In this document: positions 1 through 5,379 of the stretch, piece by piece
Numbering within the stretch: position 1 is the stretch's first letter
Layout: every line of letters begins with the position of its first letter
Assembly: GCF_003334385.1 (NCBI RefSeq)
Contig: NZ_QOWN01000058.1
Source of the DNA: Escherichia coli
GTDB taxonomy: Bacteria > Pseudomonadota > Gammaproteobacteria > Enterobacterales > Enterobacteriaceae
Reading direction: 5' to 3' (one strand)
DNA: 27,235 nucleotides
Notes under the pieces: model-generated
What the model saw: only the letters and a program-made list of their open reading frames with translations
Databases searched by the model: none
What the model was told of the DNA's origin: nothing
Position numbers and translations under genes: made by a program

Positions 1-222
1 GAAAAACTGTTCCGGATCCGGGAGGCGGAAGAAACAAAAAACAGCCTGATGCAGGTAGCCAGTGAGCATATTGCGCCACTTCAGGATGCTGTAGATCTGG
101 AGATCGCAACGGAGGAAGAAAACTCGTTGCTGGAAGCCTGGAAGAAGTATCGGGTGTTGCTGAACCGTGTTGATACATCAACTGCACCTGATATTGAGTG
201 GCCTGTAATACCAGAAGTTTAA
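1..222 (+). CDS. Tail fibre assembly protein, 3' end (5'-truncated by window edge)
   Basis: Frame 1 translates to ...[41 protein letters not shown], the conserved C-terminus of lambdoid Tfa proteins; stop TAA at 220-222. Confidence 0.75.
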
Positions 223-226
223 AATA

Positions 227-254
227 AAAGCCCGCTTAAAATATCGCGGGCTTC
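227..254. terminator. Hairpin between convergent tfa (+) and catalase operon (-); probable bidirectional intrinsic terminator
   Basis: Inverted repeat AGCCCGC / GCGGGCT (229-235 / 246-252) with a 10-nt loop; A-run upstream gives a U-run on the minus-strand transcript after the catalase operon. Confidence 0.55.
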
Positions 255-341
255 GAAATATAAATGTATTTTCAGAGGCTAGAGCTTAGGATATCTCAGC
301 GGCAATTAACTTATGAGGGATAGCTAAATACCAGAAGATAA

Positions 342-1232
342 TTAGTTTTTACTATTTATCTTTGTTTGTGGTTCTCCTTCAGCAAGCTCAGCGCCAGTGA
401 CAGGATTGATGTCTTCATGGGATTTCAACCTTGTTGCCATAGCTTTTATCATAGCTTCTTGCTTGGTCGAAAGATTTATCGAGGCCTTCCCATCCCCACC
501 GTCAACCGCTGGAACTGGATCGGAAACATAGTCAAAGTTTTCATCACTGTTCCAACTACCTCTGACGTCTTCACCTTCTGACATGTTGTAATATACGTTT
601 TTGTATTTCTCAATTGGTGGTAATTTCCCTGGTGGAAAGGTGTTACGAATTGAATGTAATGCTTTTTCAAATGAAAGCATGTGTGCTGCTTCCCTGGTCA
701 TTAAAAATGCCAGAGTGTCTTTTACTCCAGGATCATCAGTAACATTAATGAGACGTTCGTAAATGATCTTTGCCCGAGCTTCAGCTGCAATATTTGAACG
801 AAGATCGGCCGTGACTTCGCCAATAGTATCAACATAAGCTGCAGTCCAGGGTACTCCAGCTGAATTAGTTAATGCTGGGCCTCCTCCGTAGAGGAGAGAA
901 GTTATATGGCTGTCATTGCCATTTTGAGTTAAGGAACGGTAAAGCTCAGCTTCATTCTCAGTTCCTTCAGCAAGTGCTCCTTTTGCACCTTTGTTGAGCA
1001 TACCAACAAGAGAACCAATAATTTCGAGATGACTTAGTTCTTCTGTTGCTATGTCCATCAGCATATCCCTTCGGCCTGCATCTTCATCACTTAAGCCTTG
1101 AGTGAAGTATCGGCATGCTGCTGCAAGCTCACCCTGTGGCCCGCCGAATTGTTCTAAAAGTAGATTAGCCAAGCCTGGGTTTGGCTCACTTACACGTACT
1201 GTATATTGAAGTTTTTTCACGTGTCTAAACAT
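342..1232 (-). CDS. katN: Manganese (non-haem) catalase, 296 aa
   Basis: Full ORF with AGGAGG Shine-Dalgarno 4 nt before the ATG. Protein resembles the Mn-catalase family (..EELSHLEIIG.., ..FLMTREAAH..). Last gene of a tight operon with yciG/F/E-like genes, as in the Salmonella yciGFE-katN arrangement. Symbol assigned by analogy. Confidence 0.8.
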   Translation of the reverse strand: MFRHVKKLQYTVRVSEPNPGLANLLLEQFGGPQGELAAACRYFTQGLSDEDAGRRDMLMDIATEELSHLEIIGSLVGMLNKGAKGALAEGTENEAELYRSLTQNGNDSHITSLLYGGGPALTNSAGVPWTAAYVDTIGEVTADLRSNIAAEARAKIIYERLINVTDDPGVKDTLAFLMTREAAHMLSFEKALHSIRNTFPPGKLPPIEKYKNVYYNMSEGEDVRGSWNSDENFDYVSDPVPAVDGGDGKASINLSTKQEAMIKAMATRLKSHEDINPVTGAELAEGEPQTKINSKN

Positions 1233-1250
1233 AATGCCTCCTCAAAAGAA

Positions 1251-1757
1251 TTATTTTTTGGCTTCAACTCCATCAATTTCAGATCTGACCATGAATTGTT
1301 CAGTGGTGTCAGGAATATGGTTAAGAAGCCATTCAGCCATTTGTTTTTCTTCATTAAGAATTGCTTCAATAATGGGTACTGAGGCTGTATCACCCGCATT
1401 TTTGGCTGCTGCGAGAAGAGATGTGTAACACGCAATTTCAAATTGTTCGAACACATAGCCACTGATCGAACCTTTGACAATTTCATCAGATGGAAAAATT
1501 CCACCAATGGATTGCCCAAACGCGGCCATTTTACTCATAGAGTCTTTAATGACAGAGCGCGAAATATTATTACGATCAAGTATGCTTTCAAGCTGTGAAA
1601 GCTGGTTCTTTGTTTCGCTAATGTGCTGCTCAATTCTGGAACGTAACTCTGGATAGTTTTCTATCCGGCTGGCCATAGACTCAAGCATTTTTTCAGCTTG
1701 TTTCTCCATCGCATGTGCATCACGAAGCCAGTCATGGTAATGTTCAATTCTATTCAT
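1251..1757 (-). CDS. yciE: YciE-like ferritin-like stress protein (DUF892 type), 168 aa
   Basis: ORF MNRIEHYHDWLRDAHAMEKQAEKMLESMA... recognised as YciE family; only 18 nt separates its stop from the catalase start. Confidence 0.8.
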   Translation of the reverse strand: MNRIEHYHDWLRDAHAMEKQAEKMLESMASRIENYPELRSRIEQHISETKNQLSQLESILDRNNISRSVIKDSMSKMAAFGQSIGGIFPSDEIVKGSISGYVFEQFEIACYTSLLAAAKNAGDTASVPIIEAILNEEKQMAEWLLNHIPDTTEQFMVRSEIDGVEAKK

Positions 1758-3728: not shown

Positions 3729-3911
3729 GTTATAGTTTTATTTGTGAATTAAATCAATTATGGCGATGAATTACAAGGTGTTAAATGATGTCACGGCATA
3801 GCGAATTTGAATATATTGAGTCTAGTGTTGTGGTAAGAGCTTACACGTTAGGAGGCAGGTTAAATGCTTACAAGTTTAGGGGATATTGTTGCTCTTAACG
3901 GTAAACAAATT

Positions 3912-3939
3912 CCCCGGGGCGATACAATACCACCGGGGA
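3912..3939 (-). terminator. Possible ompT terminator hairpin
   Basis: CCCCGG...CCGGGG inverted repeat about 20 nt downstream of the ompT stop, followed on the minus strand by a T-rich stretch. Confidence 0.35.
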
Positions 3940-3958
3940 GAAAATCTATTTAACGTTG

Positions 3959-4912
3959 TTAAAAGGTGTACTTAAGACCAGCAGTAGTGATGAAGTTATA
4001 GTTTTCTATGCCTGCACCATTTTTGCTGTAGTCTGAAGTGTTATCATTGTGATCATAAAGTGAAGTATTACCTTTTTTATTCGTAACCCGATTCCATGCG
4101 CCTTCAACATAAACTTTTGCGTTAGGTGTTACGTAATAACCTGCATTGACTGCAACAGAATAGTAATTTTGGTCTTTGACCTTACTGCGATAAGTGATTC
4201 TTTTTCCCGGGTCATAGTGTTCATCGTTATCAGATGATTCCACCCAGTCGCTGTATTTAAATGTGCCACCGAGTTCAAAATCTTCATAACGATAACTTCC
4301 AGTCAAGCCAATGTAGGGCATTTTAAAACGTTGTTTGTAGCCGATTGCTCTTTCTCCATTCGGGAAGGAGCCGATATCATCTCTGAATCCCTCCTCAGAA
4401 CTGTAGATATAGGAACCACCTCTGGCTGTAAAGCTATAACGGCTTTCCTGATATCCGGCCATGAGTCCCAGGCGGTAATTGGGTTCGTTGAGGAGCCAGC
4501 CTTTGATATTCAGATCAAATTCGTTGGCATAATTGAGTTGTGTATCAGGGTGCCTACTTTCATCTGTCCAGGTTCCGGGGTTACTGGAATCCATCCAGTC
4601 CTGATCGACCATATTGCCACCCCGGCTGCCGAGAGTAGTCCAGCCCGCAGCCCCAATAGATATCTGGGGCATCAAATCCCAATTAATTGCACCTTTAATA
4701 ATTGCAGCGTTATTGAATTTCCAGTCGAGTTGACTGACTTTTCGGCCTCCTTCTTCAGCTAGATAAACGCGCTCTTTTGTTTTTCCGCTCAGAGTTCCAA
4801 GACTAATGTCCGCATTTATGTTGTCAGGAGTAAACGATATAGTCTCGGTAGAAGCAAAAGAGCTGATCGCAATAGGGGTTGTCAGGACTATTCCCAGAAG
4901 TTTCGCCCGCAT
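3959..4912 (-). CDS. ompT: Outer membrane protease VII (omptin), 317 aa
   Basis: ORF MRAKLLGIVLTTPIAISSFASTETISFTPDNINADISLGTLSGKTKERVYLAEEGG... recognised as essentially E. coli OmpT; signal peptide present; GGAG 8 nt before the ATG. Confidence 0.95.
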   Translation of the reverse strand: MRAKLLGIVLTTPIAISSFASTETISFTPDNINADISLGTLSGKTKERVYLAEEGGRKVSQLDWKFNNAAIIKGAINWDLMPQISIGAAGWTTLGSRGGNMVDQDWMDSSNPGTWTDESRHPDTQLNYANEFDLNIKGWLLNEPNYRLGLMAGYQESRYSFTARGGSYIYSSEEGFRDDIGSFPNGERAIGYKQRFKMPYIGLTGSYRYEDFELGGTFKYSDWVESSDNDEHYDPGKRITYRSKVKDQNYYSVAVNAGYYVTPNAKVYVEGAWNRVTNKKGNTSLYDHNDNTSDYSKNGAGIENYNFITTAGLKYTF

Positions 4913-5334
4913 AAAAGTTCTCCATTCAATCGTTTTAATGATTGAATATGTATTTTTTATTTCTAACTTAATGAGTCAATTACATATTGCTCCACTGTTT
5001 ATATTTTGTTTAGTATTGAATGATTATCACAATGCGCTATCTGTTTTTGGTTTAATTATCTGTTATTGTTTTATGTTGCGGTTTTACTGTGTGGTTTTTT
5101 ATGCTTTTGTGGTGTTTTTATCTATTTAAGCGCCATGCCTTTAGAGGCATATAAGCGAAAATAGCATGAGGTTTATCCTCAATTGCTATGTTTTTTGGTA
5201 CAAAAAAGAGGGACAAAACTGAGACACATAAGGCCTCACAATGGCTTGCAAGGCTTTACATGTTTTGAGGTAGTGGGACGTGTGAGCGCAGAGATGGCGC
5301 GGTAAGTTGTTGACTTAAAATGTCGTTCTAGGAA

Positions 5335-5379
5335 CTTCTAAGTCGTGGGCCGCAGGTTCGAATCCTGCAGGGCGCGCCA
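5335..5379 (+). repeat. attR: 45-nt 3' fragment of tRNA-Arg (argU), not a functional tRNA
   Basis: CTTCTAAGTCGTGGGCCGCAGGTTCGAATCCTGCAGGGCGCGCCA matches the anticodon-stem-to-acceptor 3' half of tRNA-Arg(UCU). The sequence upstream does not form the 5' half. Confidence 0.8.

Follow-up and report, generated by a model that had tools for sequence, protein, structure and literature searches.

A yciGFE-katN stress operon between the tail-fibre-assembly gene and attR at argU in Escherichia coli

The window analysed here is a stretch of 27,235 nucleotides from an Escherichia coli contig (NZ_QOWN01000058.1). From its first base it runs through the 3' end of a tail-fibre-assembly gene (tfa), a catalase gene with yciE, yciF and yciG, a methyltransferase gene and ompT to a fragment of a tRNA-Arg gene. 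A preliminary description made from the letters alone had given this order, and every element of it is present at the position assigned to it. The same description expected the interval to be poorer in GC than the downstream core genes, and it is: the GC content is 0.404 across 1-5379 and 0.520 in the remainder of the window.

The tfa reading frame is on the plus strand (1-222) and ends at the identical base at which the tfa coding sequence of E. coli SCU-104 stops. In blastn comparisons positions 1-204 are 97% identical to K-12 tfaD, and the two sequences diverge beyond base 204. An Rfam match to IS009 at 1-182 falls inside the tfa coding sequence, and the Rfam scan of the cargo region returned nothing else. 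At the far end, positions 5335-5379 are the last 45 nt of the tRNA-Arg(UCU) gene argU and, with the TT that follows, make up the 47-bp attR core (5335-5381, plus strand), which aligns as an exact match with attL and attR of both SCU-104 and K-12. ARAGORN reported no complete tRNA over the whole window, because the argU piece is a fragment, as the alignment demonstrates. The window begins inside tfa, and the prophage body and attL were observed only in another genome, that of SCU-104; the identity between this genome and the window is 100% over 1-5400 and 99.97% over 25.4 kb. There the attL-attR interval measures 46.8 kb and starts with an intact argU and intD, so that the attL and integrase predicted to lie upstream were located in a genome with the same right arm. 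Between the attachment sites SCU-104 has a nearly complete lambdoid set of genes for integrase, recombination, immunity, replication, Q, lysis, terminase, head, tail, J and tail fibres.

Positions 205-3012 form a discrete module of 2808 bp (GC 0.39), delimited by blastn break points against K-12, 2G7b, 55989, Sakai and PapRG-04-4. Where the module stands, K-12 DLP12 and the free phage 2G7b have 29 bp instead, and its boundaries agree across four contexts: the argU site, Sakai Sp8, 55989 at ydfJ, and the absence in K-12/2G7b. The module holds the katN operon together with what appear to be its own terminator and promoter region. We searched the module junctions for direct repeats, IS ends, att-like sequences and mobile-element scars and saw none. 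The right junction lies inside a terminator-like hairpin that is also present in K-12 and 2G7b.

Four genes in the same orientation (342-2555, minus strand) make up the operon in the order yciG, yciF, yciE, katN, with spacers of 72, 36 and 18 nt, and all four reading frames are intact. The yciG paralogue (2373-2555, minus strand) encodes 60 residues, is 93% identical to K-12 YciG over 43 residues and is annotated as a general stress protein. The products of the yciF paralogue (1794-2300, minus strand) and the 168-residue yciE paralogue (1251-1757, minus strand) are DUF892, ferritin-like proteins with 80% and 88% amino acid identity to K-12 YciF and YciE, respectively, and the yciE paralogue is annotated in SCU-104 as encoding a ferritin-like domain protein. 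RefSeq starts the yciF paralogue at the ATG at 2294. Its sequence marks the operon as a second, diverged copy of the yciGFE(katN) general-stress locus found in enterobacteria. The chromosomal version of that locus in Salmonella and K-12 is sigma-S-dependent and regulated by H-NS and YncC. It has the same genes in the same order, the proteins encoded here share 80-93% identity with K-12 YciE, YciF and YciG, and the promoter core is conserved. The native K-12 yciGFE, however, lies between ompW and trpA and has no katN, whereas the copy in the window lies in a prophage and shares 74% DNA identity with it.

The katN gene (342-1232, minus strand) encodes a manganese (non-haem) catalase of 296 residues, assigned by homology to Mn catalases of solved structure. 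With phmmer, residues 1-240 are covered by matches to Anabaena Alr3090 (6j42/4r42; E 4e-47) and to the Lactobacillus plantarum enzyme (1jku/1o9i; E 5e-35). The score of 167 bits against NCBIfam ManCatBAC is under the equivalog cutoff of 350 and marks a family-level, not an equivalog-level, match. The protein has E35, E65, H68, E151 and H184, each opposite an identical residue of Alr3090 in the alignment; going by the L. plantarum structure, we take these to be the five di-manganese ligands. They follow the pattern Glu, Glu-x-x-His, Glu, His, and the 33-residue distance between the last two matches that of the L. plantarum enzyme. At the DNA level katN is 99.2% identical to Sakai ECs_1652 and to the EDL933 gene that has been characterised as KatN/Z1921. 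The Z1921 product is reported to be 84% identical to Salmonella KatN, and in EDL933 its gene shares an operon with Z1922-Z1924 in CP-933X and the protein is secreted via the type VI system (PMC5363993). No T6SS genes lie within the window.

A candidate promoter of the yciG operon was found at 2615-2642 (minus strand), with TTGACA, a 16-nt spacer, TAGAGT, and a C directly 5' of the -10 hexamer. It scores 10/12, among the two best promoter-like sites of the scan, and the block is shared with the region upstream of K-12 yciG, though the surrounding DNA has diverged. Its dependence on sigma-S may be inferred from the EDL933 literature, which reports strong, RpoS-dependent expression of the operon genes in stationary phase, the dependence being 35- to 137-fold for Z1922-Z1924 (PMC2907692). 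Upstream of the promoter, and part of the module, is an AT-rich region (2643-3012; GC 0.31 for the spacer 2556-3059) that is plausibly an H-NS target by analogy with EDL933, in which katN is under the positive control of RpoS and OxyR, with H-NS repressing it more than 450-fold (PMC5363993). At the other end of the operon, a hairpin read from the sequence at 228-253 (minus strand; AAGCCCGC/GCGGGCTT, then TTTTATTTTA) is a probable intrinsic terminator for katN; the terminator scan passed over it, since the loop exceeds the length that the scan permits.

The gene beyond the module (3060-3728, minus strand) encodes an intact class I SAM-dependent methyltransferase (Pfam Methyltransf_12/23/25). 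Positions 3013-3815 are 97% identical by blastn to the ybcY region of K-12, where the counterpart is the pseudogene ybcY, with a stop in place of N-terminal codons. The same gene also lies 3' of the tail-fibre genes in phages 2G7b and ev243. On the ompT side it is followed by a short junction (3816-3908) in place of 1729 bp of K-12 that hold tfaX and appY; related prophages have about 2 kb here, consisting of a tfa remnant and an alpha/beta hydrolase gene. We considered a clean microhomology deletion as the source of this junction, which lacks both tfaX and the hydrolase gene, and found just a loosely similar short stretch to be shared. The last gene before attR is ompT (3959-4912, minus strand), prophage cargo encoding the omptin outer-membrane protease; its product matches NCBIfam NF008222 over its full length (residues 1-317; 703.8 bits against a cutoff of 537). 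Positions 3909-6300 are about 98% identical to K-12, and free phage 2G7b has an omptin gene at the corresponding position.

Compared with K-12, the window prophage has the DLP12 attachment site with its 47-bp core, the flanking envY-ybcH-nfrA, and tfa, ybcY/methyltransferase and ompT sequences that are 97-98% identical. DLP12 differs in that the 2.8-kb katN module is absent, the methyltransferase gene is decayed, tfaX and appY lie between ybcY and ompT, and the head and tail genes have been lost. The preliminary description had read the region as a prophage right arm with cargo unlike that of DLP12, and this is borne out: the K-12 order is, as it had said, tfaD, ybcY (a pseudogene), tfaX, appY and ompT, and K-12 does not have the gene order seen here. 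It had also reported that an appY-like ORF is lacking, and a tblastn search of the window with AppY matches envY alone, at 44% identity. This absence is less notable than it first seems because it is the common state. Of 5426 complete E. coli genomes, 837 (15%) encode AppY and at least 1137 have the methyltransferase gene joined directly to ompT; lack of appY is the majority state and K-12 has a minority arrangement.

The closest relative of the cargo is found in E. coli O157:H7. Sp8 of Sakai (ECs1652-1655) and CP-933X of EDL933 (Z1921-Z1924) have the operon in the same gene order and orientation, likewise right after tfa and ahead of a methyltransferase gene, and Sp8 is 97.3% identical to the window over 1-3815. 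The Sp8 prophage is at another attachment site, whereas the present one is at argU, and in Sakai a tfa remnant, ISEc8 and an alpha/beta hydrolase gene come after the methyltransferase gene, where the window has ompT and then attR directly. Among free lambdoid phages, 2G7b has tail-fibre genes followed by the same methyltransferase gene, a tfa remnant, an alpha/beta hydrolase gene and the omptin gene, and the match to ev243 (Nesevirus) is limited to the tfa-methyltransferase segment. Both are without the katN module, and their gap between tfa and the methyltransferase gene is 29 bp, as in K-12.

Taken together, positions 1-5381 are very probably the cargo end ("b-region") of a DLP12-family lambdoid prophage integrated in the 3' end of argU. 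With equally high confidence we count three units of lysogenic conversion in the stretch from the tail-fibre genes to attR: the yciG-yciF-yciE-katN operon, the methyltransferase gene and ompT. The preliminary description had judged this to be the one clearly accessory part of the window and the likeliest seat of strain-specific biology. It is accessory, but the stress operon is not a strain-specific novelty, because it is the same as the prophage-borne yciGFE-katN operon already studied in O157:H7, with 97-99% identity. The katN cargo at argU is thus known biology, characterised in E. coli O157:H7, and belongs to the ordinary accessory genome. Its significance beyond correct annotation is slight: the strain carries a second, prophage-borne copy of yciGFE and a haem-independent catalase, and the region illustrates how lambdoid prophages exchange cargo modules between tfa and attR, the variable pieces at the argU site being the katN module, appY, the alpha/beta hydrolase gene and ompT.

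Among the 5426 complete E. coli genomes, katN occurs in 382 (7%), the argU-site katN layout in 49, and the exact layout in five, which are independent and colinear. For strain typing, the module at argU is therefore uncommon (about 0.9% of complete genomes). In every locus examined the module follows the tfa of a lambdoid prophage. The module probably entered a lambdoid phage in a single capture and has since passed between prophages that occupy different attachment sites, with homologous recombination in the tfa and methyltransferase sequences on either side as the likely route. A DNA and protein search of 50,697 deposited phage genomes found none that carries it. Complete phages are matched by the tfa-plus-methyltransferase part only, and the matches to KatN protein in phage collections are either unannotated fragments of 1.5-2 kb at 84% identity or distant homologues. 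The nine loci in IMG/VR are apparently prophage predictions from isolate genomes.

This absence from sequenced phages would also fit the possibility that the interval is no more than a cryptic, decayed remnant of the kind seen in K-12 DLP12, a fixed chromosomal island instead of the end of a near-complete prophage. Some genomes with the same right arm have a heavily deleted phage body; in PapRG-04-4 the terminase, J and tail-fibre genes are reduced to fragments. In the SCU-104 prophage itself one tail gene contains an internal stop and the TraR/DksA gene is frameshifted. Yet SCU-104 is identical to the window over the whole cargo end and retains its prophage from the integrase through the tail-fibre genes, and we regard a remnant as possible but the less likely state. 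A further reading, that katN-bearing prophages are systematically domesticated (non-inducible or unproductive) and that the module spreads only when resident prophages recombine, never through infection, strikes us as unlikely; if true, it would make the argU copy a stress island fixed in the host instead of cargo in transit on a phage.

As cargo of a lambdoid prophage, the operon would most likely function as its O157:H7 counterpart does. H-NS would silence it through the AT-rich upstream DNA, and in stationary phase or under oxidative stress it would be transcribed from the sigma-S-type promoter. KatN would remove H2O2 as a di-manganese catalase, YciE and YciF (both ferritin-like) and YciG would be co-expressed stress proteins, and the lysogen would gain additional, haem-independent protection from peroxide. 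The EHEC protein, from a nearly identical gene, aids growth under oxidative stress, lowers macrophage ROS and contributes to survival of oxidative stress and in macrophages (PMC5363993). The strong H-NS repression of the EHEC copy and the AT-richness of the upstream region could instead mean that the operon is permanently repressed and functionally silent in the present host, a neutral hitch-hiker, and in one genome the module is interrupted by another phage insertion without obvious consequence. This seems improbable, given the four intact frames in the window, the 97-99% conservation of the genes across the 382 genomes from many hosts, the stationary-phase expression in EDL933 and the growth benefit of katN in that strain.

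Finally, the notion that katN-yciEFG is a native chromosomal stress locus, relocated or misassembled beside a prophage, draws on a gene order like that of the chromosomal yciGFE-katN of Salmonella (PMC5363993) and on the closeness of the proteins to K-12 YciE, YciF and YciG, but is effectively refuted by the position of the module inside the prophage, between tfa and attR, by a DNA identity of only 74% to the K-12 locus, by the identical layout in the five colinear genomes, and by the presence of the module 3' of tfa in prophages elsewhere in Sakai and 55989.

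The left end of the window is the right arm of a prophage at argU (the tRNA-Arg(UCU) gene), and its cargo is not that of the K-12 cryptic prophage DLP12, and the preliminary description and its interpretation were right. The gene layout it gave recurs in full in the ORF list: after the end of the tfa frame (1-222, plus strand, partial) come, all on the minus strand, genes for the manganese catalase KatN (342-1232, 296 aa), YciE-like (1251-1757, 168 aa), YciF-like (1794-2300, 168 aa) and YciG-like (2373-2555, 60 aa) proteins, a methyltransferase (3060-3728, 222 aa), OmpT (3959-4912, 317 aa) and EnvY (5425-6186, 253 aa). 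GC content is 0.404 in 1-5379 against 0.520 in the remaining window, the low value anticipated for the interval, and 0.31 in the spacer upstream of yciG. An Rfam IS009 match (RF02111, 200.7 bits, 1-182, plus strand) lies wholly within the tfa coding sequence and probably reflects conservation of tfa rather than a separate RNA gene.

ARAGORN found no complete tRNA in the window; positions 5335-5379 align with the last 45 nt of argU, confirming the proposed tRNA-Arg fragment, and with the next TT they form a 47-bp core identical in attL and attR of both K-12 and E. coli SCU-104. The SCU-104 genome (NZ_CP053284.1) is 100% identical to window 1-5400 and 99.97% identical over the first 25.4 kb. Upstream of tfa it carries portal, protease, capsid, tail, tape-measure, J, Lom and tail-fibre genes in that order, and further upstream terminase, lysis, Q, replication, immunity and recombination genes. 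Beyond these lie intD and an intact tRNA-Arg gene adjoining fimZ, the matching attL that was to be checked for, with 46.8 kb between the two cores. The SCU-104 annotation marks two prophage genes as defective: the TraR/DksA gene is frameshifted and one tail gene is interrupted by a stop. In other genomes that share the right arm, PapRG-04-4 among them, the phage body is mostly deleted. The SCU-104 prophage also encodes an intact OmpC/NmpC-type porin (L003 28486-29568) and an iss/bor serum-survival lipoprotein (L003 31359-31652); nmpC, the porin gene of K-12 DLP12, is split by IS5.

K-12 is annotated as tfaD, ybcY (a pseudogene), tfaX, appY, ompT, the DLP12 end and envY, and blastn break points bear out the claimed difference in gene content. 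Window 1-204 matches tfaD (97% identity), 3013-3815 the ybcY region (97%) and 3909 onward ompT, attR, envY and beyond (98%); 205-3012 (2808 bp) has no K-12 counterpart and stands in place of 29 bp, and 3816-3908 likewise stands in place of 1729 bp with tfaX and appY. The methyltransferase is intact in the window, but the K-12 copy has a stop near its N-terminus. As had been noted, no appY-like gene is present, the only AppY match in the window being the paralogue EnvY (44% identity). Of 5426 complete E. coli genomes, just 837 carry appY (K-12 L009 3182-3931) and at least 1137 have a direct methyltransferase-ompT junction, so the lack of appY is ordinary and the K-12 arrangement is the minority state.

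The free lambdoid phage 2G7b (LR595866.1, L010 3175-6915) has a tfa-methyltransferase junction of K-12 type; behind its tail-fibre genes, the methyltransferase gene is followed by a remnant of tfa and by genes for an alpha/beta hydrolase and an omptin. Carriage of the methyltransferase and ompT at this position is therefore normal for phages, and OmpT is real phage cargo, more than a mere neighbour of DLP12. The window junction with neither tfaX nor hydrolase (3790-3910) has only a short, imperfect ATTTGAATAT-like stretch in common with both sides of the hydrolase-type arrangement (L004 6789-6830 and 8774-8815), and it may be an old illegitimate deletion.

The katN module begins at base 204/205 in all contexts examined; it ends at 3012 against K-12 and 2G7b, and the match in strain 55989 stops at 3025. 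It follows tfa in argU prophages, in prophage Sp8 of O157:H7 Sakai and in a strain 55989 prophage abutting ydfJ, and we infer that it spread by recombination. Within it, a hairpin and T-run 3' of katN (228-253, minus strand) form a putative terminator, and TTGACA-16-TAGAGT (2642-2615) a putative promoter, whose core, with a C directly 5' of the -10 hexamer, is kept upstream of K-12 yciG. YciE, YciF and YciG share 88%, 80% and 93% identity with their K-12 counterparts, but at the DNA level identity to the native K-12 locus, which lies between ompW and trpA, is only 74%; the module is therefore a second copy that has diverged, rather than the product of a recent duplication. KatN has matches among manganese catalases of known structure and retains the expected metal-binding residues E35, E65, H68, E151 and H184. 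In E. coli Z0117EC0098 (NZ_CP098195.1, L020 6910-12891), the yciE of the module is truncated, and next to it lie a recombinase/invertase gene and tail and baseplate genes of P2-like type; another phage segment has thus been inserted into the cassette.

The katN gene is present, always chromosomally and at 97-100% identity, in 382 of the 5426 complete genomes. The full argU-site layout, counted when at least 80% of window 1-5400 falls in one place, occurs in 49, five of them exactly colinear; in the remaining 44 the stretch from methyltransferase to ompT contains an alpha/beta hydrolase or appY or is rearranged in other ways. No module was found among 50,697 phage genome records, and nine IMG/VR matches, with names of isolate-genome style, look like predicted prophages.

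The window katN is 99.2% identical to Sakai ECs_1652, annotated within "prophage Sp8; lambda-like phage", and to the EDL933 gene Z1921, named KatN by Wan et al. 2017 (PMC5363993). In EDL933, katN aids growth in oxidative stress, and KatN undergoes T6SS-dependent secretion and lowers macrophage ROS; the authors also state that katN and Z1922-Z1924 make up one operon, a homologue of Salmonella yciGFEkatN, which lies on the cryptic prophage CP-933X and was acquired horizontally (Wan et al. 2017, PMC5363993). Z1922-Z1924 are 35- to 137-fold RpoS-dependent (Dong and Schellhorn 2009, PMC2907692). What the katN cargo does, and that it lies on a prophage, is thus already published, and at argU a known kind of prophage cargo occupies a less common chromosomal position. 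The cargo most likely represents lysogenic conversion. By analogy with the near-identical EHEC copy, from which regulation and activity are taken, the operon would be silenced by H-NS and driven by sigma-S, and the host would gain three stress proteins along with a catalase that is haem-independent, with phage-borne OmpT and methyltransferase carried alongside. Away from this region, near the other end of the window, a hok/sok-type locus is marked by a sok antitoxin RNA (RF01794, 84.4 bits, 26842-26997, plus strand).
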